DNA of 64,000 nucleotides from Opitutales bacterium (GCA_965226885.1 CBDDEL010000016.1:352001-416000); one strand, 5' to 3'. Counted from the first letter of the stretch, positions 468 to 18,669 are shown. Numbers and translations: made by a program. Notes: generated by a model from the sequence alone, not told the origin.

Positions 468-552
468 CTAGGAGTTCTACCGGTTGCAGGCGCGTCCGAT
501 ATAAACCGTTGCGCCCGGCGGTGATTTTGGTTTCAGTTTGCAGCAGTATTTT

Positions 553-1731: not shown

Positions 1732-1767
1732 CGACAATCAATCCGGCTTTTGAATAATAAAATATAG

Positions 1768-3018
1768 ATGGAATTTTTTGAAACCTTTGCCCTGGCGCTG
1801 ACGCTGACAGCCCTGTTCAGCTACCTTAACCATCGCTATATCGGGCTTCCCGCGACCATCGGGGTCATGACCGTCTCTTTGCTGCTTTCGCTCATGCTTG
1901 TTCTGGCCGGGGTTTTCCATGAGGGGGTGCAGGATTGGGCCCGGACATTGGCTGGCTCTTTTCATTTCAGCGAAACGCTTTTAAAGGGGATGTTGAGCTT
2001 TCTCCTGTTTGCCGGCGCCCTCCATGTCAACCTGGACGATCTATACGCCAACAAATGGATTATCGGGTCGTTGGCGCTTTTCGGGACGATTTGTTCGGCT
2101 TTCCTTATCGGCTTGGCCACTTGGTGGCTGCTGGCCGCGATCGGCATCGGCATGCCCTATATTTACTGCCTCATTTTCGGAGCCCTCATCTCCCCCACCG
2201 ATCCCATTGCCGTATTGGGCATCCTGAAAACGGCAGGAGCGCCCAAGAGCCTGGAAACAAAGATTGTGGGCGAATCGCTTTTTAACGACGGGGTTGGGGT
2301 GGTTCTGTTTCTGGTGGTTGTAGAATTGGCTATGGGGGGCCAGGGTCATGGAGGAGACGGCCACACCGCCGCATCCATTTCTTTATTGTTTGCCCAGGAG
2401 GTTCTGGGGGGCGGCATTTTCGGACTGGGGGCCGGTTATCTCGTTTATGGGATGCTCAAATCCGTGGACAACCCGCAGGTGGAAATACTGCTGACGCTGG
2501 CCCTGGTTGCGGGCGGCTATGCCCTGGCCGACGCCTTGGGGCTCTCGGGGCCTATTGCAATCGTGGTGGCGGGGCTGCTGATTGGAAACCAGGGGCGGCT
2601 TTTCGCCATGTCGAAGCGAACCCTTGAGCGACTCGACGGTTTTTGGGAGTTGATCGATGAAATACTCAACGCGGTTCTTTTCGTCCTCATTGGATTGGAG
2701 GTGATCCTGTTAACCTACACGGGGCCCACCCTGCTGGCGGGAATTTTGGCCATCCCCATGGCGCTGCTGGTGCGGTTGGCGGCGGTCAGCCTGCCCATTG
2801 CCCTATTACGGGTCCGGCGGGAATTCAGCCCCGGAGTGGTGCGTATTTTAACCTGGGGCGGATTGCGGGGCGGCATATCGGTGGCCCTGGCGCTCTCCCT
2901 GCAACCGGGGGAGGAAAGAGACCTCATACTCAGTCTCACCTATCCGGTGGTCCTGTTTTCCATCCTCGTGCAAGGCCTCACCATCGGCAAACTGATAAAG
3001 AAGATAGTTCCATCGTGA
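1768..3018 (+). CDS. nhaP: Na+/H+ antiporter, CPA1/NhaP family
   Basis: Highly hydrophobic 416 aa; ISPTDPIAV, GESLFNDG and WGGLRGG motifs. Confidence 0.9.
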   Translation: MEFFETFALALTLTALFSYLNHRYIGLPATIGVMTVSLLLSLMLVLAGVFHEGVQDWARTLAGSFHFSETLLKGMLSFLLFAGALHVNLDDLYANKWIIGSLALFGTICSAFLIGLATWWLLAAIGIGMPYIYCLIFGALISPTDPIAVLGILKTAGAPKSLETKIVGESLFNDGVGVVLFLVVVELAMGGQGHGGDGHTAASISLLFAQEVLGGGIFGLGAGYLVYGMLKSVDNPQVEILLTLALVAGGYALADALGLSGPIAIVVAGLLIGNQGRLFAMSKRTLERLDGFWELIDEILNAVLFVLIGLEVILLTYTGPTLLAGILAIPMALLVRLAAVSLPIALLRVRREFSPGVVRILTWGGLRGGISVALALSLQPGEERDLILSLTYPVVLFSILVQGLTIGKLIKKIVPS

Positions 3019-3164
3019 TGCGAGATACTGGTTGCGGGATTCAGGATGTAGGAGACAGGCGGTTGAATTCTATGGAATCGTCATTTTTTCGATTTCCCAA
3101 TTTCCCACTTTGAGAAAAGAAAATGCGCCGGTCTAGAAGACCAATAACCCTTTTCATATTTCAT

Positions 3165-3223
3165 GCAAAACGCCCAAGACCAGATGCGCGATTTATCGCG
3201 TTACCTGCTACGATTTGTTAGGC
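3165..3223 (-). other. attC site (59-base element)
   Basis: Minus strand reads GCCTAAC-AAATCGTAGCAGGTAACGCGATAAATCGCGCATCTGGTCTTGGGC-GTTTTGC: R'' RYYYAAC containing the stop codon, central CGCGAT/ATCGCG palindrome, R' starting GTT, 59 bp. Confidence 0.8.
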
Positions 3224-3809
3224 AATCCCACAATAATTTACAGCACCAATTGTTTCCGAGCAGAGGCCATATCCTTTCGCCTCATAGACTTCGAAGCATG
3301 CTGCGACGACTGGAACGGGTAGCTCCAACTCATTTGCGATTTCTTTTCCGTTTAGCTGCTGACCAATTTTGCATTCATCCAGGATTCTCGAAAAAGATTC
3401 CATTCTTTCACTGTTTTCATATAGGTGAAGGTGACAGAGGTACATCATGAATGACGGATCGGATAGCCAAATAGCCAATGGAAGATGCCTTCCCAATGTG
3501 CCTTCCCAATGCATGGTCACACCGAATTAGCCTCATTGCCGCCAATGTTGCAATGGGTCTACTGAAGTTCTCATAGAATTCGTCCTCAAATACGAGCTTG
3601 ATGTAGTTCGCTCGTTTCAACTCTTCATAGAGATGCTTAGATAATTCTGGTACGTCATCATGAAGAAAACTGATTGGATCCTCCAACCTACGAATGCGAT
3701 CAGAAAATTCCTTTGCATCAAGCTCTCCCTGTAGCTGAACAAGAGACGAAGCCCCAGGGAAAGAGGCTCCAGCGATACGGATCATGGAGAAAAACCAGTT
3801 TTTTTTCAT
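3218..3809 (-). pseudogene. Cassette-borne hypothetical protein (possible C-terminal HTH), frameshifted
   Basis: ATG at 3809 (MKKNWFF); two overlapping ORFs join into one frame when the 13-bp tandem duplication TGCCTTCCCAATG (3486-3511) is collapsed; stop lies within attC R''. Confidence 0.75.
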
Positions 3810-3814
3810 TTCTT

Positions 3815-3841
3815 GCCTAATATATTTCAGGCAGCGTCTAG
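3815..3841 (-). other. attI-like site C (core GTT changed to ATT; upstream part cut off by IS1380)
   Basis: CTAGACGCTGCCTGAAATAT-ATTAGGC matches sites at 8068-8094 and 16774-16800; ATTAGGC is a one-base mismatch to the complement of the cassette's R'' GCCTAAC. Confidence 0.65.
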
Positions 3842-5469
3842 CCCGGATATTTCGTAAAAAAAGTATCGTTGATATGCTTAACTGCTGATATACAGCAGGA
3901 TAGATCAATAATTAAAGCAATATCAGCGATGACAAAAGGTAAACAATTAAAGCTACAGTTGACAAGGGTAAAAGGCCGCCGTGTGCGGGTTGATTTCAAG
4001 GGCGGAGAGGTTACTTCGGATGCCGGACTGCTTTTGATCCGGGAAGTGGATCGGCAGTTGGGCTTGACCGAACGAGCGGCCCGACAGTTAGTGGACAAAC
4101 GGCAGAAGGGCAAAGTACGCCATGAGGTATTGGGGATGCTGCGGCAGCGCGTTTACGGGCTGGTGGCGGGCTATGAGGATTTGAACGACTTTGATACCCT
4201 GCGCCACGATCCATTGTTAGCAAACGGTAACGGGGCGCATTGAAACGTTGGCCAGCGCGCCGACTTTGTGTCGTTTTGAAAACGGGCAGGATCGGCGGGC
4301 GGCCTTTGCGGTAAACGAGCTGTTGGTCGAACAGTTCATGGGCTCCTTTGCCGAGGAACCCGAAGAGATCATCCTGGACTTTGACGCCACCGACACTCCG
4401 GTGCACGGGCTCCAGGAGGGACGTTTTTTCCACGGTTATTATGATCATTACTGTTTTCTGCCGCTATATGTTTTTTGCGGTGATCAGCTGCTGGTGGCCT
4501 ACCTGCGGCCGAGCAAGATCGATGCCAGCAAGCATGCCGGGGCCATCCTCAAATTGCTGGTTAAACGGATTCGCCAAAGCTGGCCCCGTACGCGGATTAT
4601 TTGGCGCGCCGACAGTGGATTTTGTCGAGACCGGATACTCTCTTGGTGCGACCGCAACGAAGTTAGTTACATCGTGGGGATGGCTCGCAATGCACGCTTG
4701 CAGCAAGACGCCCAGCAGTTGCAAAAGCAGGCCAAAGAATGGTTCGAACTAAGGGGTAAAAAACAACGGTTATTCCAGGACTTCGTCTATGCTGCCGATT
4801 CGTGGCGATGGCTGCGGTTGGTCATCCATAAAGCCGAACACACCGCACAGGGGTCCAACCCGCGCTTCGTGGTGACGAACCTGCCGGGCGATCCCCAGGA
4901 GCTTTACGACAAGGTATACTGTGGCCGCGGTGAAATGGAGAACCGCAACTGTGGCCGCGGTGAAATGGAGAACCGCAACTGTGGCCGCGGTGAAATGGAG
5001 AACCGCATCAAGGAACAGATGCAATTGTTCAGCGAGCGCACCAGCGCCCATCAATGGTGGGCCAATCAGTGGCGATTGCTCTTGTCGGCGCTGGCCTACA
5101 CCTTGATGGAAGCCATGCGCCGGTTAGCCTTAAAAGGGACGAAGTGGGCGCGGGCCCAATGGCACACCCTGCGGCTCAAATTAATCAAGATCGGAGCGGT
5201 CATCGTGCGCAACACCCGAACGATTCACTTTCACCTAAGTGAGAGTTATCCTTGGGCCAGTCTTTTCAACCATGCGGCCCGCCGATTGGTGCCAACCTAA
5301 AGGGTGCATTGGTGCTGCCCCCGGCACTACCGAACCAATGGGGGAAAGGGGGCAGTGTCTCTACACCCTGAAAAACACCTAAAAATCAAGACGATCTGCT
5401 CAAAATACAAAGAAATCCATCTCCAATAGCAATAACGAGCCAAACTTTACCCTTCATGAAATATCCGGG
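3842..5469 (+). mobile_element. IS1380-family element, copy 2 (transposase frameshifted)
   Basis: IRs CCCGGATATTTC/GAAATATCCGGG; 1628 bp = 1567 + 1-bp insertion near 4219 + 60 bp from a triplicated 30-mer; flanks CTAG/CTAA do not match. Confidence 0.95.
4918..5007 (+). repeat. Perfect 30-bp tandem repeat x3 inside transposase
   Basis: ACTGTGGCCGCGGTGAAATGGAGAACCGCA three times; single copy in the other full IS1380 copies. Confidence 0.97.
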
Positions 5470-5503
5470 CTAAAGGCCCCATCCAGCATCTTGCATCTAT
5501 TCA

Positions 5504-5935
5504 CTAGTGCGTCAGAGATCCCCCGAAATACAGCCCCACGATAGCCGCCAGCAAATGCTTATCCAACGGCGTGATGACCAGCCCGTGCATCTGCTCCCAA
5601 ACGATCTTCTCCCCCTCGCTCCCGAAAAACCAGAATCCCCTCGTCATTTCCGCATAACCGAAAAACACCGCCGTCTCAGGCATGAAAACCGCCACCATCT
5701 TGGGAAAAGCGATGACGAAAAAAACCGCCATCAAAGCGATCGTCCGCCGCGTCCACTGGAACCCCCGGTTCTCATAACGCCGCGCCTTCCCGATGATGTC
5801 CGCCTTGGCATTGAGCGCCTGCAACACATAAGTGCGCTCCAATCGCCGGGACTCATTCGTCTTCGACCAAATTTTCATCGCTCCCCCCAAAAAAGAAGAG
5901 CCCAAAAGAGTAACAAGTTCCATCGGCACAGGCAT
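5504..5935 (-). CDS. Small multi-TM protein resembling a marine phage membrane (holin-like) protein
   Basis: N-terminal amphipathic helix, GFQWTRRTIAL motif, hydrophobic segments and C-terminal AIVGLYFGGSL; similarity to phage proteins is from recall, not a search. Confidence 0.6.
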   Translation of the reverse strand: MPVPMELVTLLGSSFLGGAMKIWSKTNESRRLERTYVLQALNAKADIIGKARRYENRGFQWTRRTIALMAVFFVIAFPKMVAVFMPETAVFFGYAEMTRGFWFFGSEGEKIVWEQMHGLVITPLDKHLLAAIVGLYFGGSLTH

Positions 5936-6221
5936 TTTTATATTTTCCAAAAAGTTAAAGGTTGATCCAAAAATTGCTTAATAAACTAATGTTCACTATT
6001 CAAACGCTTAAAAAAACCAAGAAACCACTGCATCGGGCACCAATTCCTCGGAAGACACCCACCATACCACAAAATCAACAAAGCGTCAATGGATAGGTTG
6101 GCTCCGTTTGATGCGTTTGAATAAACATCAAAAAAAACACCAAAAACCCCCAAAAAACCGAAAATATCCAAAAAAAACCCAGAAAATCCACCTCCCAATC
6201 CCAATTCTGGCTCCAATCTCC

Positions 6222-7833
6222 GGTAGTGTATAAAAAAAGAATGTTATTTTGTATTTTTAGCTGTACAAATAGCGTTAGGCAGTTTATTTTTAGTGCATGG
6301 TTACTAAAATTATTAATTGTCGGCACTGTGGAAGTGAAAATATCATTAAATTTGGCAAGACGCCCAACCATAAACAGCGCTACCGCTGCCATGATTGTGG
6401 TAAACAAAGCCGCGAAAACCCCACAGTGAAATACACCGAAGAGCAAAAAGAAATGATCCTTCGAGTCTATCAGGAACGCAGCAGTCTACGCGGTTTACAG
6501 CGCGCCTTCGGGGTGAGTCCCAACACCGTTTTGAGTTGGTTAAAAAAAACGACAATCGCTGCGCCCGCTCAAAAGCACGATTCTTGCGGCCCGCCGCCAT
6601 GATGTCATTGAACTGGACGAACTGTGGTCTTTTGTGGGGCGCAAGAGCGATGCCCAATGGGTTTGGATCGCTCTTTGCCGACGCACCCGTCAAATCCTCT
6701 CCTATGCCATTGGGCCTCGGGATTGGTATCGTTGCCGGGAACTTTACGAGCGTCTGCCACGGGCCTACAAAAGATGTGCCACCTACAGCGACTTTTGGAG
6801 CACTTATGATGAAGTCTTTCCGGTAGTGTATTAAGTAGGAATGGTGGCTAATTCTTGATTATATTGATGAATGAAAAGTCTCAGACAGGTTTCATGCATA
6901 CTCTTAAGCTTGGAAAAGGAGAGGGTTTTGCGTGTGAAACGACCCAGTCGTTGGCGCAGGGTATTGTTCCATCGTTCCACATGGGCCGTTTCACCGGTTT
7001 CTTTTCCCACGGATCGGTTATGAGGAAAGACTTCATCATAAGTGCTCCAAAAGTCGCTGTAGGTGGCACATCTTTTGTAGGCCCGTGGCAGACGCTCGTA
7101 AAGTTCCCGGCAACGATACCAATCCCGAGGCCCAATGGCATAGGAGAGGATTTGACGGGTGCGTCGGCAAAGAGCGATCCAAACCCATTGGGCATCGCTC
7201 TTGCGCCCCACAAAAGATCACAGTTCGTCCAGTTCAATGACATCATGGCGGCGGGCCGCAAGAATCGTGCTTTTGAGCGGTCGTAGCGATTGTCGTTTTT
7301 TTTAACCAACTCAAAACGGTGTTGGGACTCACCCCGAAGGCGCGCTGTAAACCGCGTAGACTGCTGCGTTCCTGATAAACTCGAAGGATCATTTCTTTTT
7401 GCTCTTCGGTGTATTTCACTGTGGGGTTTTCGCGGCTTTGTTTACCACAATCATGGCAGCGGTAGCGCTGTTTATGGTTGGGCGTCTTGCCAAATTTAAT
7501 GATATTTTCACTTCCACAGTGCCGACAATTAATAATTTTAGTAACCATGCACTAAGAATAAACTGCCTAACGCTATTTGTACAGCTAAAAATACAAAATA
7601 ACATTCTTTTTTTATACACTACCGTCTTTCCTCATAACCGATCCGTGGGAAAAGAGACCGGTGAAACGGCCCATGTGGAACGATGGAACAATACCCTGCG
7701 CCAACGACTGGGTCGTTTCACACGCAAAACCCTCTCCTTTTCCAAGCTTAAGAGTATGCATGAAACCTGTCTGAGACTTTTCATTCATCAATATAATCAA
7801 GAATTAGCCACCATTCCTACTTAATACACTACC
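6222..7833 (+). mobile_element. IS1-family element A (insA/insB), interrupted by an inverted copy of itself
   Basis: Ends GGTAGTGT/ACACTACC; 8-bp TSD CAATCTCC; InsA zinc ribbon (CRHCGS..CHDC) 6297-6602; A8 slippery site. Confidence 0.95.
6822..7623 (-). mobile_element. IS1-family element A, nested copy (802 bp)
   Basis: 8-bp TSD GTCTTTCC; insA 7243-7548 and insB frame ending 6831. Confidence 0.95.
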
Positions 7834-7994
7834 CAATCTCCCAAATTCTGACTCCAAAATCCAATATTATACCTCTGCCCCATCCAGCATCCAGTATCCT
7901 TCTCCATATCCCCAGTGCGCCCGTGAGAAAAACCACAGATCAGACAGATAAACGCAGATAAAAAAGCAATAATTCGCGGAATCCTGATAAAACC

Positions 7995-8094
7995 CTTCTC
8001 AACCAAGAAATTGACAACGCAATTGTAAATTTCGGTCAAAATTTTACCGTATCCTATCATTCGTTACGTGGACGCTGCCTATAATATGTTAAAT
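7995..8094 (+). promoter_or_regulatory. attI-like site A with putative cassette promoter
   Basis: About 75% identical (72/96, manual ungapped count) to 16701-16796, homology ends exactly at GTT; core GTTAAAT 8088-8094; TTGTAA-N16-TACCGT upstream. Confidence 0.7.
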
Positions 8095-8116
8095 GAAATA
8101 CAAGGAGTGAATATCT

Positions 8117-8878
8117 ATGAGTAAATCGCCAATTGTGTTGTTCGCATTCGCGCTCTGCAGTATGGGCTGCACGTTGTTGACACAACTGACGGAAGCAAAC
8201 ACAGGACAACACCCACAGTCATTCAAGGCAGAGATAACGAAAACACTACGAGCAAACTACTTGCTGTATATCCCTGACCAATATCCAACTTCGCTGAAAG
8301 AGTGGCCGCTTATTTTGTTTCTTCATGGCTCAGGAGAACGCGGTAGCGACTTGAGTAAGGTTGAAGATCACGGTATACTGAAGCTTATTGCCAAAGAGGG
8401 AAAGCATTTCCCTTTTGTCATTGCTTCTCCTCAATGTCCAAAGAATAGTTTTTGGGACAACGAATTACAGATCGATATACTGAGTGGGATTTTGGATGAT
8501 GTTCTTTCACAATACCGCATCGACAAAGATAAAATATACGTCACGGGACTCAGTATAGGTGGTTTCGGCACCTGGGGCATTGCCGAAGCGTATCCCAATA
8601 GATTTGCTGGGATCGCGCCAATCTGTGGCGGCGGGGATCCCGAAAATGCAGAAAGTATCGCCCATTTGCCGATATGGGTTTTCCATGGAGCGAATGACCC
8701 AAGAGTGCCCCTTAGGAGATCCGAGGAAATGGTCACTGCTTTGCAAAAGGCTGGCAGCAAAGTCAAATTTACTGTCTATCCTGATACCGGACATAACGCC
8801 TGGACTGAAACGTATAACAATCCCGATCTATATGAATGGTTTCTGAAACATTCTCGCCAACCTATAGAATCAGAGTAG
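8117..8878 (+). CDS. Alpha/beta-hydrolase (predicted peptidase/carboxylesterase, COG4099-like), probably secreted; cassette gene
   Basis: LFLHGSGERG, GLSIGG nucleophile elbow, WVFHGAND and GHNAW; signal/lipobox-like N-terminus; starts 22 bp after GTTAAAT. Confidence 0.85.
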   Translation: MSKSPIVLFAFALCSMGCTLLTQLTEANTGQHPQSFKAEITKTLRANYLLYIPDQYPTSLKEWPLILFLHGSGERGSDLSKVEDHGILKLIAKEGKHFPFVIASPQCPKNSFWDNELQIDILSGILDDVLSQYRIDKDKIYVTGLSIGGFGTWGIAEAYPNRFAGIAPICGGGDPENAESIAHLPIWVFHGANDPRVPLRRSEEMVTALQKAGSKVKFTVYPDTGHNAWTETYNNPDLYEWFLKHSRQPIESE

Positions 8879-8888
8879 TGAAAAATCC

Positions 8889-8997
8889 ACCAAACAAGCC
8901 GGAAGCAGACAATGGCTTGTAGCCGCGATATTCATCCTCCAGCCATTTTGACTAGAACCTATCCCCTCCCAACCCGCGCAAGGATCGACGGAGTTAG
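8889..8997 (+). other. Degenerate or chimeric attC-like site whose R' core is split by IS1380
   Basis: Begins ACCAAAC-AAGCC 10 bp after the stop; removing IS1380 and one TTAG restores GGA-GTTAGGC (perfect GTTRRRY); the arms pair poorly. Confidence 0.45.
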
Positions 8998-10578
8998 CCC
9001 GGATATTTCATGAAGGGTAAAGTTTGGCTCGTTATTGCTATTGGAGATGGATTTCTTTGTATTTTGAGCAGATCGTCTTGATTTTTAGGTGTTTTTCAGG
9101 GTGTAGAGACACTGCCCCCTTTCCCCCATTGGTTCGGTAGTGCCGGGGGCAGCACCAATGCACCCTTTAGGTTGGCACCAATCGGCGGGCCGCATGGTTG
9201 AAAAGACTGGCCCAAGGATAACTCTCACTTAGGTGAAAGTGAATCGTTCGGGTGTTGCGCACGATGACCGCTCCGATCTTGATTAATTTGAGCCGCAGGG
9301 TGTGGCATTGGGCCCGCGCCCACTTCGTCCCTTTTAAGGCTAACCGGCGCATGGCTTCCATCAAGGTGTAGCCATCAAGGTGTAGGCCAGCGCCGACAAG
9401 AGCAATCGCCACTGATTGGCCCACCATTGATGGGCGCTGGTGCGCTCGCTGAACAATTGCATCTGTTCCTTGATTCGGTTCTCCATTTCACCGCGGCCAC
9501 AGTATACCTTGTCGTAAAGCTCCTGGGGATCGCCCGGCAGGTTCGTCACCACGAAGCGCGGGTTGGACCCCTGTGCGGTGTGTTCGGCTTTATGGATGAC
9601 CAACCGCAGCCATCGCCACGAATCGGCAGCATAGACGAAGTCCTGGAATAACCGTTGTTTTTTACCCCTTAGTTCGAACCATTCTTTGGCCTGCTTTTGC
9701 AACTGCTGGGCGTCTTGCTGCAAGCGTGCATTGCGAGCCATCCCCACGATGTAACTAACTTCGTTGCGGTCGCACCAAGAGAGTATCCGGTCTCGACAAA
9801 ATCCACTGTCGGCGCGCCAAATAATCCGCGTACGGGGCCAGCTTTGGCGAATCCGTTTAACCAGCAATTTGAGGATGGCCCCGGCATGCTTGCTGGCATC
9901 GATCTTGCTCGGCCGCAGGTAGGCCACCAGCAGCTGATCACCGCAAAAAACATATAGCAGCAGAAAACAGTAATGATCATAATAACCGTGGAAAAAACGT
10001 CCCTCCTGGAGCCCGTGCACCGGATTGTCGGTGGCGTCAAAGTCCAGGATGATCTCTTCGGGTTCCTCGGCAAAGGAGCCCATGAACTGTTCGACCAACA
10101 GCTCGTTTACCGCAAAGGCCGCCCGCCGATCCTGCCCGTTTTCAAAACGACACAAAGTCGGCGCGCTGGCCAACGTTTCAATGCGCCCCGTTACCGTTTG
10201 CAACAATGGATCGTGGCGCAGGGTATCAAAGTCGTTCAAATCCTCATAGCCCGCCACCAGCCCGTAAACGCGCTGCCGCAGCATCCCCAATACCTCATGG
10301 CGTACTTTGCCCTTCTGCCGTTTGTCCACTAACTGTCGGGCCGCTCGTTCGGTCAAGCCCAACTGCCGATCCACTTCCCGGATCAAAAGCAGTCCGGCAT
10401 CCGAAGTAACCTCTCCGCCCTTGAAATCAACCCGCACACGGCGGCCTTTTACCCTTGTCAACTGTAGCTTTAATTGTTTACCTTTTGTCATCGCTGATAT
10501 TGCTTTAATTATTGATCTATCCTGCTGTATATCAGCAGTTAAGCATATCAACGATACTTTTTTTACGAAATATCCGGG
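8998..10578 (-). mobile_element. IS1380-family element, copy 3 (frameshifted by 14-bp duplication)
   Basis: TSD TTAG; CCATCAAGGTGTAG duplicated at 9358-9385; 1581 bp. Confidence 0.95.
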
Positions 10579-10600
10579 TTAGGCAAAAAATCACCGAGCA

Positions 10601-10681
10601 CCGTAATTCAAAAGTGTAAGGCATCAAACCCGCTGCAAACGCTTTAATAATCCAATTCGTATCAAACCCGGCTTCCCCCCC
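10601..10681 (+). repeat. Conserved non-coding block downstream of cassette array A (paralog at 18373-18455)
   Basis: CCGTAA..GCATCAAAyCCG..GCrAAC..CCAATTC..TCAAACyCGGCTTCCCCCC shared by both loci. Confidence 0.75.
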
Positions 10682-11062
10682 TCTCTCCGTGTCCCCCGTG
10701 CCTCCGTGAGAAAAAATCACCCATCCACCATCCCCAAACCCATTTCGCGTTAATTCGCGTTCATTAGCGGTTAAAAATCACAAATCTCTCATCCAGCATC
10801 AAGTATCCAACATCCTCTCAAACCCCGTGAGATTATTTTAAAATTTCAGAATTTGAAACCAATTCGATTTCCTCACAAAGCCACAAAGAGCACAAAAATT
10901 TTCTAATTGTAAAAAAATTCCAGCCAAGATCACGATACACAGCGATTGCGGTATCGACCATTATCTTCCTCACTTCGTGTCCTCCGTGCCTCCGTGAGAA
11001 AAAAATCATCCCTGCTCATCCGTCTAATCTGTTGTAAAAAATATCCTGTATCCCATCCGTGC
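10682..11062. repeat. Mosaic of short 7-9 bp periodic repeats
   Basis: CTCCGTGTCCCCCGTGCCTCCGTG, TTCGCGTTAATTCGCGTTCATTAGCGG, ATCCAGCATCAAGTATCCAAC, CACAAAGCCACAAAGAGCACAAA, CTTCGTGTCCTCCGTGCCTCCGTG. Confidence 0.7.
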
Positions 11063-11147
11063 AATAGTGTGTAAACGCCGGGATGAAACCGGTACGGGGG
11101 TCGGGGTAAAACCGGTACGCTTGGAATAAGGTTTAGGTTAGTAATTG

Positions 11148-12752
11148 GGTAGTGTTAACATGACGAATGTTTGATATTGCTGTTGTATTCCCAGATGAAC
11201 AAGCACAGGACGCGAAAATGCATGACCAAAGACTTCGAGAATGACAGCGTTTTACGCACATAGCGTGACAGGGACTGTCGCAAGGTATTGTTCCAGCGTT
11301 CGATATGGGCGGTTTGGCCGGATTGTTTCCCGCTGGCGCTGTTGTGAGGGAAAACCTTGTCGTAGCTTTCCCAGTAATCGCTTACGGTGGCACAGTCGCG
11401 ATAGGGCTGGGCGATGTTGTGATACAACTGCCGGTAGTGTATTAAGTAGGAATGGTGGCTAATTCTTGATTATATTGATGAATGAAAAGTCTCAGACAGG
11501 TTTCATGCATACTCTTAAGCTTGGAAAAGGAGAGGGTTTTGCGTGTGAAACGACCCAGTCGTTGGCGCAGGGTATTGTTCCATCGTTCCACATGGGCCGT
11601 TTCACCGGTTTCTTTTCCCACGGATCGGTTATGAGGAAAGACTTCATCATAAGTGCTCCAAAAGTCGCTGTAGGTGGCACATCTTTTGTAGGCCCGTGGC
11701 AGACGCTCGTAAAGTTCCCGGCAACGATATCAATCCCGAGGCCCAATGGCATAGGAGAGGATTTGACGGGTGCGTCGGCAAAGAGCGATCCAAACCCATT
11801 GGGCATCGCTCTTGCGCCCCACAAAAGATCACAGTTCGTCCAGTTCAATGACATCATGGCGGCGGGCCGCAAGAATCGTGCTTTTGAGCGGTCGCAGCGA
11901 TTGTCGTTTTTTTTAACCAACTCAAAACGGTGTTGGGACTCACCCCGAAGGCGCGCTGTAAACCGCGTAGACTGCTGCGTTCCTGATAGACTCGAAGGAT
12001 CATTTCTTTTTGCTCTTCGGTGTATTTCACTGTGGGGTTTTCGCGGCTTTGTTTACCACAATCATGGCAGCGGTAGCGCTGTTTATGGTTGGGCGTCTTG
12101 CCAAATTTAATGATATTTTCACTTCCACAGTGCCGACAATTAATAATTTTAGTAACCATGCACTAAAAATAAACTGCCTAACGCTATTTGTACAGCTAAA
12201 AATACAAAATAACATTCTTTTTTTATACACTACCCAACTGCCAGCACGTTTGATCGCTACGATCACCCAGAGAAAACCCGACGACCTGTCGGGTACGTCG
12301 ACACAAGGCTACCCATAGCCATACCTGCCCCGAACGCTTATCGCCCCAGAATGACCACACCTCGTCCAGTTCCAGCACATCACTACACTGGCGGGCAAGC
12401 AGAGTGGACTCCAGCTTCGGCAAACTCAGGACTTTTTTTAATCCATTCGATGACCGTCTTTGGGGCTACCCCGAAGGTACGGTAAATGGCACGCAGGCTC
12501 ATCCGGTTTTGGTGCGCACGGAGCACCTGCTTGACCAGCGCCGGAGGATGCTCACGACTTTTGGGGTGAAGCCGAAACTGATAACCACACCCCTTGCATC
12601 GATACTTCTGAACCCCTTTCGGATCCTTGCCGTGCTTGATGATGTGATCGCTTCCGCATTGAGGACATTTTACTGTGATATGGACCATTCCCAGTTCACA
12701 ACATAATCACGCTAAAAAGTACAGCTTAAACATTCAAAATGTTAACACTACC
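11148..12752 (-). mobile_element. IS1-family element B, interrupted by IS1-A
   Basis: Ends GGTAGTGTTAACAT/ATGTTAACACTACC; TSD AGTAATTG; InsA 12383-12688 (CPQCGS..CKGC); InsB split into 12223-12423 and 11155-11427. Confidence 0.92.
11433..12234 (-). mobile_element. IS1-family element A (802 bp)
   Basis: TSD CAACTGCC; near-identical to the other A copies. Confidence 0.95.
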
Positions 12753-12855
12753 AGTAATTGCAGGTACGTCAAGGTTTAGGGTTTGGGAGTTGGTTTTGGG
12801 GATTGGCTTGGGGTCGGTGAGGAGGCCGGAGGCCGACGAGCCGGGCCCAAGGCGT

Positions 12856-13623
12856 TTATTGTTTTGTGCCACGGCGACGGCGTCGAGCATCGCGCAAGCG
12901 GTAGCTTTGCCCGTTGGCTTCGAGGATATGCACCCGATGGGTGAGTCGGTCCAGCAGAGCTCCGGTGAGCCGTTCGGAACCGAGCACTTCGATCCAGTTC
13001 TCAAAGGGCAGGTTGGTGGTGACGATGAGACTGGTGCGCTCGTAAGCGCGGCTGACCACGTCGAAGAGCAGTTCGGAACCGGTCTTGGAAAAAGGGACGT
13101 AACCGAGTTCGTCGAGGATGAGTAGGTCGAGCCTTTCGAGTTGCTTCATGAAGCGCTGCAGGTCGTGGTTGTCGCGTTGCTCGAGCATATGGGTAACCAG
13201 GGCGGTGACCCCGAAGAAACGGATCCGCCGGCCCTGGGCACAGGCGGCAAAGCCCAGGGCGGTGGCCAGGTGCGTTTTACCGGTACCGGCGTTACCGAGG
13301 AGCAGCACGTTTTCGCGCTGGTCGACATACTCCCCGCGCATGAGCTCTCGGATGAGCGCTTCGTTGATCGAGGGCTGCGCTTCAAAGGCGAAGCTCTCGA
13401 GGGTCTTGAGCACGGGGAAACGGGCGTTTTTGATCCGCCGCTGGGCGGCCCGCTGTTCGCGTTCAATGAGCTCCCGTTCGACCAGATGCAACAAAAAGGC
13501 GGCGTAATCGAGCCGGTCCCGGGAACAAGCCGCGGCCACCGCCGGCCATTCGCGCAGGATGGTGGGCAACTTCAGTTTCTTGAGGTGATGGTGTAACAGC
13601 AGCTGGTTTTTTTCTTCCTTCAT
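12856..13623 (-). CDS. istB: IS21 helper ATPase IstB
   Basis: Walker A GNAGTGKT, Walker B LLILDELGY, LLDRLTH. Confidence 0.95.
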   Translation of the reverse strand: MKEEKNQLLLHHHLKKLKLPTILREWPAVAAACSRDRLDYAAFLLHLVERELIEREQRAAQRRIKNARFPVLKTLESFAFEAQPSINEALIRELMRGEYVDQRENVLLLGNAGTGKTHLATALGFAACAQGRRIRFFGVTALVTHMLEQRDNHDLQRFMKQLERLDLLILDELGYVPFSKTGSELLFDVVSRAYERTSLIVTTNLPFENWIEVLGSERLTGALLDRLTHRVHILEANGQSYRLRDARRRRRGTKQ

Positions 13624-15125
13624 AAAGCCCCTCCTGGAATCTTGAGCAGTTCGCTGTAGGCACCGAGGTCAGGGGCGGCCACACGGACGTGACGCAGGTG
13701 TGGATGGCCGTCCAGCCGGAAGGTTCTGCTCCCGTAGTCTTCCTGAGGATAGAGATACTGGGCGATGGCCTCACGAGTCAGTCCCCCCACCCGCAGGGCC
13801 GAGACGACGGCCTGCTGCAAGGCCGCCATGGGGTGTTTCTCCAACAGCCGCAGCACCCGGATATACTCCCGGGTGCCTTCGCCCCCGCATTGGCTTTCGA
13901 GCCGGCGTCTGAGGACCTGCAGGCACTGCGGCAACTGCCAGCCCGAGAGTGGGCGGGCGAAGTCCAAAGCGCCCGGTTTTTTCTCCAGCAAAGCCAGGTA
14001 GTGCACCGGCTCGAAAGAGACTTGCTCTTTATCCCAAATGCGGCGGTGCCGGGCCACCTCTTGGCCCCCACAGAAGATCACCACCTGCCGACAGGACCCT
14101 TCCACCACCACCGGATGGTGGGCGCAGCGCACCGGCACCGAATAGTCGTTGCACTCGAAGCGCACCAGCGAGAGGCTGCTGACGCAGGTCGAGCGTTTGC
14201 GGCTCGCTTCAAAGGGTATGGGCGGCAACGCCAGCATGACGGCGCGCTCCTCGGCCAGCAGTTCCTTTTTCACCGCCCTTTTCCCGCGTAATTTACGCTC
14301 CATGTCCCGCTCACATGCCTCCAACAGCTTTGCGTTGAGTTCCTCCAGGTCCCGAACCTGCGGTACCGGTACCAGGAAGTTGGCCCGGGCATAACGCACG
14401 ATCCCCTCGACCACGCCCTTCTCGTTGGGCCGGGCGGGCAGACAGAAGTGTTCCTCGAACAGGTAATGGCTCTGTAGCTGCAGAAACCCGTCGGTCAGCT
14501 TGCGTTCACGCGAACCGATAATCTTACCCACCGCCACCTTCGAGTTGTCATAGCTGATGCGCCGGGGCACCGCCCCGAAAAACTCAAAAGCTCGCAGGTG
14601 CCCCTCCCAGAAGCTCTCCGTGCACTCCCGTTCGAACACCTGCACGAAAAAGGCATCGCTGTAGGGCAGGCTCATGGCAAAAAATGGCCGCCTACGCAAT
14701 TGCCCCGCCTCCTTCACCAGGGCATGACCGAAGTCCACCTGTCCCTCCCCGGGGCGGTGCTCCAGCGGCACGAACACTTCCCGCCGCCTCGCTCGCAGCT
14801 CGGCCACCACCTCCTTGACCGCCGTGTAGCCCCCTTGGTAGCCCTTCTCCCGACCCAAACGCTGGTAGATCCGTTTGGCCGTATGGCGCTGCTTCTTGGG
14901 CACGTTCCGGTCCGCTTTGAGCACCTCCTCGATCCAGCCCACATACGGATCGATCTTGCGCTCTCGCCTCTTCTTGCGCCGGTATCCCGGCGGCTGGGAA
15001 TAGGCCAGCATCTTTCCCAGGGTCTCCCAGTGCAGTCCCTCTTCTCGCATTACAGAGCGCTTGCTCTGCTTGTCCCGCAGCACTTTGTGCCGCACTCTTG
15101 TCCATTGCTTCATATCTCGATACAC
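13620..15125 (-). CDS. istA: IS21 transposase IstA
   Basis: PGEGQVDFG, ISYDN and KGVVE DDE-type motifs; 4-bp overlap with istB. Confidence 0.95.
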   Translation of the reverse strand: MYRDMKQWTRVRHKVLRDKQSKRSVMREEGLHWETLGKMLAYSQPPGYRRKKRRERKIDPYVGWIEEVLKADRNVPKKQRHTAKRIYQRLGREKGYQGGYTAVKEVVAELRARRREVFVPLEHRPGEGQVDFGHALVKEAGQLRRRPFFAMSLPYSDAFFVQVFERECTESFWEGHLRAFEFFGAVPRRISYDNSKVAVGKIIGSRERKLTDGFLQLQSHYLFEEHFCLPARPNEKGVVEGIVRYARANFLVPVPQVRDLEELNAKLLEACERDMERKLRGKRAVKKELLAEERAVMLALPPIPFEASRKRSTCVSSLSLVRFECNDYSVPVRCAHHPVVVEGSCRQVVIFCGGQEVARHRRIWDKEQVSFEPVHYLALLEKKPGALDFARPLSGWQLPQCLQVLRRRLESQCGGEGTREYIRVLRLLEKHPMAALQQAVVSALRVGGLTREAIAQYLYPQEDYGSRTFRLDGHPHLRHVRVAAPDLGAYSELLKIPGGAL

Positions 15126-15203
15126 TCCTCCTTTCTAGGATAAGCGTACCGGTTTTAAAGCGCCCTCTTTACCGTACCGGTTTTTCCCCGGCGTTTACAA
15201 TAG

Positions 15204-16546
15204 TGACGTGTACTGGATTTGTTGGACACGGGATTCTCTTATATTCATTGTTTATTGATTAGTGTGTCAGGCGGCTTGTTTTGGTAAAGGGTTTTGTTTT
15301 CTCGTTGCCCCCCATGGGGGGCAAATATTTTCCTCGAATTGGACTGGGCTTTGGTAACTCAGAGAGGAATGTTTGCGATATCGGTTGTAGAAGATTTCCA
15401 CGTATTCGAAGACAGTTGATCGCAGTTCGCGCTCGTCGGCAAAGTGGCGGCCTCGAATCGTGCTGGTCTTGAAGCGGCCGTAGAACGATTCCATGGCCGC
15501 GTTGTCGTAGCAGTTGCCTTGGGCGCTCATGCTCGGCTTCATGCCTAGTTCAGAGACCAGCCTCTGATAGTCGTCGCTGGCGTAGGGGCTGCCCCGATCG
15601 CTGTGATGAATAATCCCGGTGCGCAGTGTGCCGCGGGTCATGGCCGCGGCTTTGAGGGCCTTGCCAACCAGCTTCGCGTCGTTGTGGTTGGAAACGCTCC
15701 AGCCCAGCAGGCGTCGGCTGAACAGGTCCATCACCGTGGCCAAGTACATCCAACCGGCCAGGGTCCGTAGGTAGGTCGTGTCCGCCACCCAGACCTCGTC
15801 GATATGGGTCGGCTGGCCATGCTTTTTAAGCACATTGGGGCTGTAACCATAGGGATGGTTACTGTTGGTTTTTAATGGCTTAAAGCGTTTACTCTGGGTG
15901 CTTTTGATTCCCATTTCACGCATCAGACGCAGAGCCCGGTCACGGCCGCAATCGATGCCCTCATCATCCTTCAGATGGCGGTGCATTGGCCGATGCCCAT
16001 AGCGGCCCTTGGCCTCTTTGTGTACCTTCAGGATCGCCCCCTTGATTCCCTCGTCCTCGATCCGCCGGGCCGAGGGCGCTCGGTGCCTCCAGCAGTAATA
16101 GCCACTGCGACAAATCCCCATCGCCGAGCATATTTCCTCGATCTTGAAGCGCCCCTCGTTGTCTTTGACAAACTGGTACTTCATTGTTCGTCCTTGGCAA
16201 AGTAGCCCACCGTTTTTTTTAGTATCTGGTTGATCCGCTCCGAGCGGCGCAGCTCTTTGCGAAGACGATCTATCTCGGCCGCCATCTCCTTCGGACTGCT
16301 CTGTCGCTTTGAGGTGGCTTCGCCCTGCTGATCGTCCAGATAGAGCCTCTTCCACCTATACAATTGGTTGGTGTTGACCCCAAGTTTGGTCGATACCTCG
16401 GTGGCGCTCAGACCATCGAGTATCATCAGTTGAACTGCCTCATTTTTGAACTCTATACTAAAGCGTCTTCTTCCCATGCGTCTTCTTCCCATGCTTCGAT
16501 TCTCCATTTAGGAGAATCTCGTGTCCACTTTTTCCAGTGCACATCA
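15204..16546 (-). mobile_element. IS3-family element A (orfA 16181-16507, orfB ending 15267)
   Basis: TG..CA ends, TSD ATAG (inside the IS21 TSD); WVADTTY, HHSDRGS and DNAAMES motifs; A8 slippery site; 15-bp duplication at 16463-16492. Confidence 0.95.
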
Positions 16547-16700
16547 ATAGTGCTCAAACCCCATTTCAAAACCCGACAGGTACCAAAACGATGCGTCTAC
16601 GCATCTAATTAAAATTTTATGCAGCGTTTTTGTACCATTTTATGCAGCGACCACGCATCATTAAAAATTGGCGGTTAATTACGGAAAACGGATTCAGCCT

Positions 16701-16800
16701 CTTCTCAGCCAAGGAATTACAAATTCACTTGCAAATTTCGCCAAAAATTTTATGGTAATCAATCACTGGCTGCGTAGGCGCTGCCTACAATATGTTGGGC
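16701..16800 (+). promoter_or_regulatory. attI-like site B with putative cassette promoter
   Basis: TTGCAA-N16-TATGGT (16729-16756); GCGCTGCCTAC-AATAT-GTTGGGC; the core is the exact complement of the next attC R'' GCCCAAC. Confidence 0.75.
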
Positions 16801-16816
16801 TGAGGAAACAAGAAGC

Positions 16817-17203
16817 ATGATAGAACCTCTATTCCAGAAAGTGGATTGCATCAGCCTTCCGGTGAAAGACCTGGAAGGAGCGCTTGAATTCTATCATGAT
16901 AAACTGGGGCACAGTCTCGCCTGGCGCACTGACAGCGAAGCAGGGCTTGACTTTGCTGATGGCAGCGTTGAATTGGTGCTCCGCCTCAATAATAATCCAC
17001 CTGAAACAGACATCATGGTGGAATCAGCGATTAAGGCTGCGAAACGATTCGAGAAGGCAGGCGGTTCGGTTGTTGCTGGGCCGTTTGATATTAAGATCGG
17101 AAAATGTGTCGTCGTAAAAGACCCTTGGGGAAATCACCTTGTTCTGCTTGATTCCAGCAAAGGTCTTCTAAAAACGGACGAAGAGGGCTATGTCGTCTCT
17201 TAG
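16817..17203 (+). CDS. VOC/glyoxalase/bleomycin-resistance family protein; cassette gene
   Basis: LPVKDLEGALEFYHDKLG and VKDPWGN motifs; bounded by GTTGGGC and attC. Confidence 0.88.
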   Translation: MIEPLFQKVDCISLPVKDLEGALEFYHDKLGHSLAWRTDSEAGLDFADGSVELVLRLNNNPPETDIMVESAIKAAKRFEKAGGSVVAGPFDIKIGKCVVVKDPWGNHLVLLDSSKGLLKTDEEGYVVS

Positions 17204-17211
17204 CTGATGCA

Positions 17212-17265
17212 GCCCAACAAATCATTTGAGCCGAAGCATTCGCCCGGCTCAATTCGACGTTATGC
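17212..17265 (+). other. attC site
   Basis: GCCCAAC-AAATC-ATTTGAGCCG-AAGCATTCGCC-CGGCTCAATT-CGAC-GTTATGC; TTGAGCCG/CGGCTCAA stem. Confidence 0.85.
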
Positions 17266-17301
17266 CATCTTGATAGACCCACAAATGGGAAGGACACTTC
17301 A

Positions 17302-18246
17302 ATGAAGAAAATTCAGTTTTTCATACTTACTTGCGCCTTTGCGGCCCTGATTTTTTTCCAAACAGCAACGGCACAACGACCGCCGATCATCGACGTGCAT
17401 CTGCACTCCTACCGAGCGGAGAGTTTTTCCGGACCCTTGCCCCCTAATTCGGTGACCGGCGTGATGCCTGCGGCGACGACACCCAAGGAGAACATGCAGG
17501 CAACGTTGACGCAGCTGGAGAAATTCAACATTGTGCTTGGCATCGTCAGCGGGCCCCTGGATTCGGTAGATGCGTGGCATCAGGCGGCTCCTGACCGGAT
17601 CATTGCTGGGGCCTATGAGGGCCCGCGAGGCATCCTGCCGGATGTGGCGGTCCTACGCGAATCCTTTGAGTCCGGTCGCCTCCAGGTGATGGGTGAACTG
17701 GGGCTCCAATACCGCGGCCTAACGCCCAACGAATCGCGTCTAAAACCCTACTTTCGTTTGGCTGAGGAATTAAGCATCCCTGTTGCCATTCACACTGGCC
17801 TTGCTGCACCAAATACGCCCTACAAATCGTGCTGTCCTGATTTCCGAGTAACGCTGGGCAATCCAGAGCTTGTGGAGGAGGTGCTGGTCCGGCATCCGAA
17901 GCCCCGTGTTTACCTTATGCACGCCGGACATCCCTACCTGCAAGAGACGAAGGCCATCATGTCTATGTACCCGCAGGTCTACGCCGACCTCGCAGTTATC
18001 AATTGGGTCTTGCCGCGAAAGGAGTTCCACAACCATCTGAAGGCGCTGATTGACGGCGGCTACGGCAAGCGGCTGATGTTCGGCTCAGATTCACAGCTGT
18101 GGCCGGAAGCTATAGAAATGGCCATCCAAGGCATTGAGTCGGCAGAGTTTCTGACAGAGGAGCAAAAACGGGACATCTTCTACAATAATGCAGCGCGGTT
18201 TCTGCGATTGACTAAGGAGACAATTGCTAAACATCATGGTCAGTAA
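17302..18246 (+). CDS. Secreted amidohydrolase (Amidohydro_2); cassette gene
   Basis: Signal peptide; IDVHLH, AIHTG, LMHAG, FGSD and IFYNNAARFL motifs. Confidence 0.88.
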   Translation: MKKIQFFILTCAFAALIFFQTATAQRPPIIDVHLHSYRAESFSGPLPPNSVTGVMPAATTPKENMQATLTQLEKFNIVLGIVSGPLDSVDAWHQAAPDRIIAGAYEGPRGILPDVAVLRESFESGRLQVMGELGLQYRGLTPNESRLKPYFRLAEELSIPVAIHTGLAAPNTPYKSCCPDFRVTLGNPELVEEVLVRHPKPRVYLMHAGHPYLQETKAIMSMYPQVYADLAVINWVLPRKEFHNHLKALIDGGYGKRLMFGSDSQLWPEAIEMAIQGIESAEFLTEEQKRDIFYNNAARFLRLTKETIAKHHGQ

Positions 18247-18262
18247 TGAACATGGAGAGCCG

Positions 18263-18314
18263 GCCTAACAAGCCGACGTCGCTTCGCGGCGCAGCTTATC
18301 GTGAAACGTTAACG
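18263..18314 (+). other. Degenerate attC site (short, probable internal deletion)
   Basis: GCCTAAC-AAGCCGACGTCGCTTCGCGGCGCAGCTT-ATCGTGAAAC-GTTAACG; hairpin with TTCG loop; left spacer appears missing. Confidence 0.65.
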
Positions 18315-18372
18315 CCCCTCGCTTGACCTAAGCATTGACACCGTATTAGTGCTCAACCCCCTATGCAAAACC

Positions 18373-18455
18373 CCGTAAATCGCTAAAGAAAAAGCATCAA
18401 ATCCGGCGCGAACACGTTAAAAAGCACCAATTCACGTCAAACTCGGCTTCCCCCC
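18373..18455 (+). repeat. Conserved non-coding block downstream of cassette array B
   Basis: Paralog of 10601-10681. Confidence 0.75.
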
Positions 18456-18583
18456 ATCCAGCATCCTTCCCTCCCCATCCAGCATCCCTCCCCCCTTTCT
18501 GTCCCCCTCCCCAAAAAAAGACTTGGCAAACCGGGGACAACGCGTAATTTACCCTCTTTCATATCTTTGGCACGCGCAAATAT

Positions 18584-18669
18584 GGTGGGATATCCAAGTG
18601 GCTAAAGGGCGCGGACTGTAAATCCGTTCGGGTAACCGTTCGCAGGTTCAAATCCTGCTCCCACCACCA
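18584..18669 (+). tRNA. tRNA-Tyr (GTA)
   Basis: Acceptor GGTGGGA/TCCCACC-A-CCA, anticodon GTA 18618-18620, long variable arm, GGTTCAAATCC T-arm. Confidence 0.97.

Follow-up and report, generated by a model that had tools for sequence, protein, structure and literature searches.

Orphan attI-like platforms and a possible distributed integron in an Opitutales bacterium

How can several integron attachment sites, each followed by cassette genes, be spread over a chromosomal region without an integron integrase? This question is raised by a stretch of 64,000 nt from the genome of an Opitutales bacterium (G000; C16:352001-416000, hereafter the window, whose own numbering is used where no contig is named), in which a first-pass annotation had noticed three attI-like sites, here termed platforms A, B and C, each loaded with cassettes. 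A textbook integron, as described in the available text of PMC4889954 and PMC8618304, contains one attI located beside the integrase gene intI. We propose, with a probability of roughly 0.7, a distributed integron: the sites would be orphan platforms, each an attI plus a promoter, of which the genome contains about 25 copies. This proposal is based on a repeat family with a sharp end at the crossover triplet GTT, its homology to genuine attI regions, core-complementary cassettes closed by attC sites and the replacement of cassettes at orthologous platforms.

The motif GRCGCTGCCTRNAATATRTT is present in the window at 3819-3838 on the minus strand (C) and at 8071-8090 (A) and 16777-16796 (B) on the plus strand, each time without mismatch, compared with a mean of 0.00 matches in 100 dinucleotide-preserving shuffles of the window; the threefold recurrence reported before is thus real. 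Platform B (16669..16796, +) is the top-scoring copy of a longer element (profile E 2.1e-33) and consists of the hexamers TTGCAA and TATGGT separated by 16 nt, the inverted repeat GGCTGCG-TAGG-CGCTGCC and the end CTACAATATG, behind which the crossover point (written G/TT below) and the remaining TT of the triplet follow. Platform A (7967..8090, +; C16:359967-360090, E 1.2e-23) carries the hexamers TTGTAA/TACCGT, an imperfect inverted repeat and the end CTATAATATGTT, and its upstream likeness to B extends over 96 bp at 75.0% identity (query 525-620 versus C16:359995-360090), as previously estimated. Of platform C (3819..3841, −) only the final ~23 nt of the element are left, ending with CTAGACGCTGCCTGAAATATATT and carrying the crossover triplet ATT for GTT; its orthologue on contig C140 of the congener G002 retains 79 nt of the element plus a GTT. 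Behind each site a gene is found on the same strand, with start codons ATG at 8117 (A), 16817 (B) and, on the minus strand, 3809 (C). The core GTTGGGC of B is the exact complement of the R'' box GCCCAAC at 17212, and the core ATTAGGC of C deviates from the complement of its R'' box GCCTAAC by one mismatch owing to the triplet ATT instead of GTT. After removal of the insertion sequences (IS), whose boundaries were read in this analysis, A and B are ~1.65 kb apart, practically the ~1.64 kb given earlier. The window is devoid of a tyrosine recombinase, as the first-pass annotation had stated, since none of the 11 PF00589 matches of the genome and no TIGR02249 match falls into it.

Outside the window, the motif reveals a dispersed family. 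At up to three mismatches it matches the genome 22 times, seven times exactly, against a single match of the backwards pattern. A profile of 130 positions, built from 14 copies and applied with nhmmer at a cut-off of E<1e-5, detects 24 genomic places on contigs C10 to C17, namely the 14 copies used for building and 10 new ones; copy C of the window is missing among them because only ~23 nt survive. The earlier idea of a multiplied family of stand-alone promoter-plus-attI sites, dependent on an integrase that is distant or lost, is supported, while its number of three was far too low and has to be raised to about 25; the action in trans and the promoter are its presumptive parts. An alignment of 28 copies, 17 from G000 and 11 from the congener G004, presents the conserved segments in the order cTTGCAAA, 16 nt, TTTTATnGT, CCAATCA, the inverted repeat GGCWGCG-N4-CGCTGCC and CTACAATATGTT, the hexamers being nearly invariant. 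The copies differ from one another by 15-30%, and the two seven-position arms of the inverted repeat form four to six Watson-Crick pairs in 27 of 30 copies.

The right-hand boundary of the element is abrupt. Among 30 copies from G000 and G004, the mean frequency of the commonest base amounts to 0.80 over the final 45 nt and to 0.87-0.97 over the final 17, and is 0.42 over the 45 nt past GTT, so that the stop of likeness at this triplet, initially noticed for A and B, is a property of the family. The bases at positions +1, +2 and +3 behind GTT are purines in 24, 25 and 21 of the 30 copies, respectively, and +4 is a pyrimidine in 27, which corresponds to the form GTTRRRY of an integron core. The copies themselves are not reported as attC sites by the fold-based scans used for attC detection, and the conserved left arm, inspected by eye in the 28-copy alignment, offers no RYYYAAC box able to pair with the 3' end.

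The next question is whether the element is related to the attachment site of an actual integron. G000 encodes a single integron integrase, on contig C10, which is recognized by TIGR02249 in two pieces with 186.7 bits (positions 1-156) and 233.8 bits (155-312); its gene is split by an IS21-family element with the target duplication GCAAAG and is otherwise open in frame. The protein includes the stretch ALDRKYPNLGKEWGWFWLFPA, which we take to be the family feature specific to IntI. An intact IntI of the family occurs in G006. On the opposite strand, 160-260 nt upstream of the intI start and in divergent orientation, the element profile matches at C10:135172-135275 with E 0.069 genome-wide and 1e-5 within an 801-nt stretch; the match terminates with GCGGCGTATTTGCCGCCTACATATAGTTAGAT (also given as GCCGCCTACATATAGTTAGAT), and an open reading frame (ORF) begins within 20 nt behind it. 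This paralogue is the only copy adjoining the IS-split intI, and the platforms of the window have no such neighbour. A second view is offered by G008, which belongs to a different genus of the same family and whose intI scores 418 bits to the model with one TAA inside. The sequence divergent to it reads CTCTTGACA-17-TAACTT-gctc-AATCAC-ctat-TTGCGTAGACGCAA-actattctta-GTTAGGC (E 0.017 in a 33-kb set); the promoter-like hexamers of G008 are TTGACA, 17 nt, TAACTT/TAGATT. In order and spacing, these boxes agree with the dispersed element, and the first cassette at this attI closes with an attC beginning with GCCTAAC. The site next to intI is thus homologous to the element in G000 and likewise in G008. 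Moreover, the attI region of G008 recurs in that genome as four orphan copies, which are distributed over three contigs, are 71-86% identical and each diverge past GTT, and the multiplication of attI is accordingly not confined to one genus. At greater distance the element was not detected: none of 80 intI loci from many phyla, encoding IntI proteins of 47-60% identity, matches the profile (best E 2.4).

Could the platforms be the remains of as many complete integrons? Tblastn searches with IntI found no remnant beside any element copy in G000. A tyrosine-recombinase fragment at C16:77377-77517, near the platform C16:78050, was considered as a candidate remnant and rejected as the stub of a tRNA-island integrase. 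The region C16:77080-78050 as a whole has the appearance of an integrative island bordering on an attI-like platform: a tRNA gene, the C-terminal stub of a phage-type integrase and repeated CTTTAATATTAAAGA sites immediately precede the −35 box of platform C16:78050. In the four congeners compared (G001-G004) no intI was found, the best TIGR02249 score being 92.8 bits against a cut-off of 265 and belonging to an ORF that is not an intI; these assemblies are 81-93% complete, and the result means not found in the genomes searched rather than absence. The candidate G003:C311 was discarded because it is only 27-29% identical to IntI and no element lies beside it. Relatives with an intI beside each site, the situation expected from a simple decay of ordinary integrons, were consequently found neither in the four congeners nor in the form of IntI remnants by the G000 copies.

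The motif itself (at up to two mismatches) matches all four congeners, with 1, 6, 13 and 13 matches against 1, 0, 0 and 0 in the controls, the single match in G001 being no more than that of its control. Outside the genus, 36 genomes of the order were scanned and gave 0 or 1 match each.

The genes behind the platforms show the cassette character to different degrees. Cassette B1 (16797..17261, +) consists of ORF 16817-17203, a member of the glyoxalase/VOC family (PF00903, 8.1e-13), and an attC at 17212-17265 (+), which starts with the core-complementary R'' box GCCCAAC and passes the fold-based scans. It is succeeded by cassette B2 (17262..18310, +) with an amidohydrolase ORF (17302-18246; PF04909, 9.2e-30) and a degenerate attC-like site (18263-18314, +; R'' GCCTAAC, short stem, R' GTTAACG). 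Cassette C (3165..3818, −) contains one gene in two frames (3809 to 3420 and 3520 to 3221), disrupted at 3486-3511, where 13 bp are perfectly duplicated in tandem; a Pfam family was found for neither piece. Its attC (3223 to 3165, −; R'' GCCTAAC, R' GTTTTGC) displays the expected boxes and a folded stem, as judged by eye and by folding, and fails the fold-based scans. In cassette A (8091..8997, +) the ORF 8117-8878 encodes an alpha/beta-hydrolase or esterase of 253 residues (Peptidase_S9 6.5e-16, Abhydrolase_2 1.1e-09); no foldable attC was found for this cassette, and 116 nt behind the stop codon a heptamer GTTAG/GC at 8993 is split by an IS5-like insertion. Of the attC or attC-like ends formerly ascribed to all three cassettes, those of B (one good, one degenerate) and, with the qualification given, that of C (one) can be retained, and the one of A stays unconfirmed.

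A more general relationship between platforms and cassettes was sought in the complement of the core. The test comprised 21 rows, namely the intI-proximal copy and the 20 dispersed ones whose 3' end is complete; among the latter, C15:329753 and C16:607623 are duplicates of each other. The reverse complement of the 7-nt core is found downstream in eight of the 21 rows. In five of them, B, C16:342568, C16:903900, C16:78050 and C10:227899, it is positioned right behind the ORF or ORFs and opens a foldable attC; the other three, located inside IS or coding sequence, were counted as chance. Five exact 7-mers within ~60 nt of a stop codon would be expected by chance with a probability estimated at ~1e-8. 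Independently, the genome was scanned for attC sites with the pattern YAAC-MARNC plus hairpin plus GTT, using the reversed and the complemented genome as controls, after a first scan demanding both consensus boxes had given nothing and its criteria had been relaxed. Five of the 10 hits are situated at most 1.9 kb downstream of a platform, among them one that follows the partial left arm C10:281286-281388, and ~0.05 are estimated to be expected there by chance; the suspected enrichment of the motif before attC-bounded genes is hereby borne out. Additional attC sites recognized by eye are located behind platforms or are severed upstream by an IS, and no long classical cassette array was found in G000. 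With respect to cargo, 14 of 27 platform ORFs belong to a Pfam family and 13 do not; represented are glyoxalase, amidohydrolase, esterase, tautomerase, GrpB, small SAM methyltransferase, HEAT, NHL, flavodoxin-like, DNA methylase fragment, PQQ-like propeller, DUF1883, TIR and amidase. Such a mixture is usual for integron cassettes.

A further view of the platforms is provided by orthologous loci. At four platforms the element and the far flank are kept between two species with 75-91% identity, and the inserts between them are unrelated. Each insert stops at the GTT of its last attC; the one exception is G004 L057, in which a second gene meets the flank without an attC. In the first case, platform C is compared with its orthologue on G002:C140, where the element end caatatGTT/aaccgc is followed by a 112-residue ORF and a good attC (AGCTAAC...GTTAAGC). 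Past the GTT of this attC, the G002 sequence aligns with window positions 3172 to 3058 (74.8% identity to L039 1373-1270), and the cassettes are unrelated; homology in the right-hand flank of platform C (3058..3164, −) thus sets in at ~3172, where the R' box of the attC has its GTT. In the second case, C10:227899 and its counterpart on G004:C29 share the element end and the downstream gene (88.6% over 1347 bp) around unrelated inserts of 490 and 1092 nt. The third platform, C16:903900, holds one tautomerase cassette and its orthologue G004 L057 a GrpB cassette with attC plus the mentioned second gene, the downstream flank being 91% identical over 1500 bp. In the fourth case, C12:273964 and G004 L060, both flanks are kept (86-87%) and the unrelated inserts of about 1006 and 1111 nt both end at GTTAG in our reading. 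The four cases imply that the platforms are older than these species and that genes have been exchanged at the integron crossover point.

In public sequencing runs, platform B together with both its cassettes is covered by contigs of three studies, and other contigs match the final 36-70 nt of the element and diverge exactly past 16796; one of the latter continues into the tautomerase cassette of C16:903900, and two are, by eye, unlike any listed copy. Among these contigs no joint skipping a cassette was seen. In one run (X2) an 8-nt insertion is located behind 17259, at the junction between cassettes B1 and B2. A comparison of filled and empty sites was not possible with the platform flanks of the window, as the tRNA and the genes at 500-3018 are sited elsewhere in the relatives and those stretches contain no platform. 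At the Rfam gathering score, a tRNA at 18584-18666 is the only listing.

Based on these data, a scenario for the system can be outlined. Each platform, ~130 nt long, would be paralogous to the attachment site of the integron itself, and an integrase encoded elsewhere would have inserted and swapped cassettes at G/TT of each platform. The outcome would be many mini-arrays of one or two cassettes beside their own promoter-like stretch and not one long array. We infer from the sequence that IntI acts in trans and that recombination takes place at the platforms, and transcription from the hexamers as well as any role of the inverted repeat are to be understood as predictions of the same kind. In G000 the system is probably frozen and decaying, because the only intI is now split by the IS21-family element. 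Signs of decay may be seen in platform C, which lacks its left arm and carries an ATT core and a frameshifted gene, and in platform A, where an IS resides in the terminal heptamer.

Several observations weigh against this interpretation. The −35/−10-like pair of the first-pass annotation is conserved as TTGCAA/TATnGT but agrees with only eight of 12 sigma-70 positions and is absent from the list of a consensus promoter scan, and promoter function is for this reason left as a prediction from conservation. Some copies bear altered triplets (ATT, GTA, GAT or TTT). The likeness at the intI-proximal site of C10 is weak in score (14.8 bits). A clear attC is found in only five of the 21 rows plus, with one mismatch, platform C; other copies precede genes without a recognizable attC, and in G004 a recognizable attC stands behind three or four of 15 complete 3' ends examined. 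At least nine G000 copies are, in our reading, cut by an IS within ~800 nt downstream and are hence not judgeable. The 10 hits of the genome attC scan compare with eight in the two control readings, so that the scanner alone is not specific, and RNAalifold found no consensus structure in two MAFFT alignments of nine to 10 attC sites. Finally, with the only intI broken in G000 and none found in the four congeners, the trans-acting enzyme is hypothetical in every genome that carries many platforms.

Among the alternatives, a family of regulated promoters fares best, although we regard it as unlikely. In this regulon the dyad would serve as operator, attI would have evolved from one member, and cassettes would land at the others secondarily. 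The conserved hexamers with the dyad just downstream and the prevalence of copies preceding genes without a recognizable attC would fit, and the available text of the attG preprint (10.1101/2022.09.11.507474) suggests a genomic hot spot as the possible origin of attI. However, a regulon leaves unexplained why conservation stops at a single base, with GTT then RRRY, and why the genes differ at all four orthologous loci in front of a matchable downstream flank; the functional outcome would anyway be the same, namely sites acting as attI. Less probable still is that the platforms represent debris of ordinary integrons, either many that lost intI or one array scattered by IS rearrangement. The hundreds of IS copies in the genome, the unmatched flanks CTAG/CTAA of the IS by platform C and the IS hit in the sole intI would agree with such a history, and the origins of integrase-free attC clusters named in the available text of PMC4889954 are intI loss, rearrangement or insertion at secondary sites. 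One array, however, has a single attI and cannot yield about 25 copies differing by 15-30%; beside the copies tblastn detects no IntI remnant, the fragment near C16:78050 being the island integrase stub; and at least four platforms occupy orthologous places in G004 or G002, according to which the platforms predate the IS burst. Least convincing, and very improbable, is a mobile promoter-bearing unit without ORF, similar to a miniature inverted-repeat transposable element or a cassette, that inserts before genes and has attC-ended neighbours by coincidence, as the high and genus-specific copy number, the conservation of both left arm and right-hand trailer in the B sub-family and the common element plus first gene without common flanks at C14:561757 and G004 L059 are outweighed by orthologous loci with a constant element and far flank around an exchanged gene, the opposite of hopping, by core-complementary R'' boxes in five copies and by the lack, among the loci compared, of any filled/empty pair differing by the element.

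Returning to the attI-plus-promoter platforms, the way in which they multiplied deserves attention. A right-hand platform arm, the trailer (18308..18473, +), starts with GTT/AACG behind cassette B2 and is common to four platforms of one sub-family (E 1e-27 to 4e-43). It was dismissed as a general right arm, since there are four full copies plus fragments only. A trailer-like 30-nt piece is situated upstream of the left arm of B (E 0.25), which leaves room for trailer and left arm as one unit between two crossover points. In the non-coding stretch behind cassette A (10579..11079, +), positions 10601-10683 resemble the distal part of the platform B trailer (73.6% over 87 nt). One may speculate that the integrase itself copies the ORF-less attI-plus-promoter head as a unit with G/TT at either boundary (in the B sub-family, TTAACG-trailer...left arm-G), but we consider this parallel integron doubtful. 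If it were true, one recombinase would serve dozens of separately expressed landing pads, and pads that stay replacement hot spots without a findable intI would mean that cassettes are also exchanged by a second route.

Further features were observed around the platforms. C10:281039-281390, ~1.4 kb upstream of another platform copy, is a degenerate platform, in which the far-left arm is fused at AATCAC to a 30-codon ORF; behind it come a good attC (CTCTAAC...GTTAGTT) and then a cassette for a membrane protein. Two recurrent non-coding motifs occur near the platforms of the window, repeats of the CATCCAGCATCC type at 7870-7900, 10790-10815 and 18452-18492, and CCGTGAGAAAAAA(T)CA boxes at 7905-7925, 10680-10715 and 10975-11010.

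The window has been extensively remodelled by IS. One IS5-like element (3842..5469, +) has severed platform C from its left arm, and its unequal flanks, CTAG and CTAA, make a rearrangement between IS copies likely; a second (8998..10578, −) generated the target duplication TTAG inside GTTAGGC behind cassette A. The possibility that this IS is specific for attC was rejected on the basis of 211 paired ends genome-wide, which indicate the general target YTAR. Two nested IS1-family copies (6222..7833) are located upstream of platform A, and the interval between A and B contains an IS21-family element (11080..15202), into which IS1-family copies have inserted, and an IS3-family element (15212..16543). 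G000 contains more than 150 copies of the IS3-family end besides IS1- and IS21-family copies; with 5.48 Mb, its genome compares with 3.4-4.3 Mb in the congeners, and the IS expansion is extreme. The IS1-family copies of the window have counterparts in G004 with 99% identity though the chromosomal flanks are 86-93% identical, which points to a recent movement of IS between the species. A putative IS200/IS605-type Y1 transposase gene at ~5820-5330 (−) of G004 L068, flanked by the hairpin AGATACCCCGTAGCTTGCTACGGGG, sits inside the cassette of the C10:227899 orthologue, and the same hairpin end also interrupts the trailer in G004 L062. Perfect tandem duplications were encountered in the IS5-like transposase (30 bp, three times, 4918-5007) and at 9358-9385 (14 bp, twice) and 16463-16494 (15 bp, twice), and a duplication of ~21 bp spans the attI core at C16:342568.

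The platforms combine features of several known systems. They resemble a complete chromosomal integron's attI with its cassette promoter (Pc) in the crossover at G/TT followed by the TTRRRY of the cassette, in a promoter-like pair pointing into the cassettes, in the homology of the element to the intI-divergent sequence of G000 and G008 and in the R'' box of the first cassette complementing the core. In contrast to the textbook integron, about 25 copies are away from any integrase and carry 0-2 recognizable cassettes each. With attC clusters that have no integron-integrase (CALIN), defined in the available text of Cury et al. 2016 (PMC4889954) as two or more attC without an intI nearby, single attC being discarded, they share attC cassettes remote from intI and, as for half of the CALIN described there, an intI elsewhere in the genome. 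CALIN are, however, defined in that text without reference to attI, whereas a conserved and multiplied attI-like head is the defining part here. One-cassette mini-arrays, such as most of those described here, would drop out under the single-attC rule, and attI sites are annotated there only for classes 1-3 and by exact match. The genomic cassette insertion sites termed attG, for which the accessible text of 10.1101/2022.09.11.507474 gives a mere GWT consensus, are similar in that cassettes are housed in the chromosome away from the integron, with expression where a promoter is close by. According to the same text attG sites differ from attI in sequence and structure, whereas the platforms share ~130 nt with each other and with attI, far beyond a conserved GWT. 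The Delta-attI-type gene cassettes, as far as the available text of PMC12901181 describes them, likewise contain attI sequence off its canonical place that is still used by the integrase; they are remnants of attI1 or attI2 in clinical class 1/2 arrays and not a dispersed, promoter-bearing chromosomal family. In the full-text literature searched, supplements excluded and including the available text of PMC8618304 and PMC12901181, we found no description of a multiplied, dispersed attI family.

In a textbook integron only the cassettes nearest to the single attI/Pc are expressed, and the remainder is a silent stock. If the distributed integron proposed here is true, its about 25 attI heads, each with a promoter-like stretch and one or two cassettes, could allow many captured genes to be expressed simultaneously. 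Orphan cassettes and single attC sites, discarded by surveys or filed as CALIN, would also gain a concrete explanation of their origin. In further lineages, attI sites can be found in the same manner, as repeat families whose homology ends at GTT.

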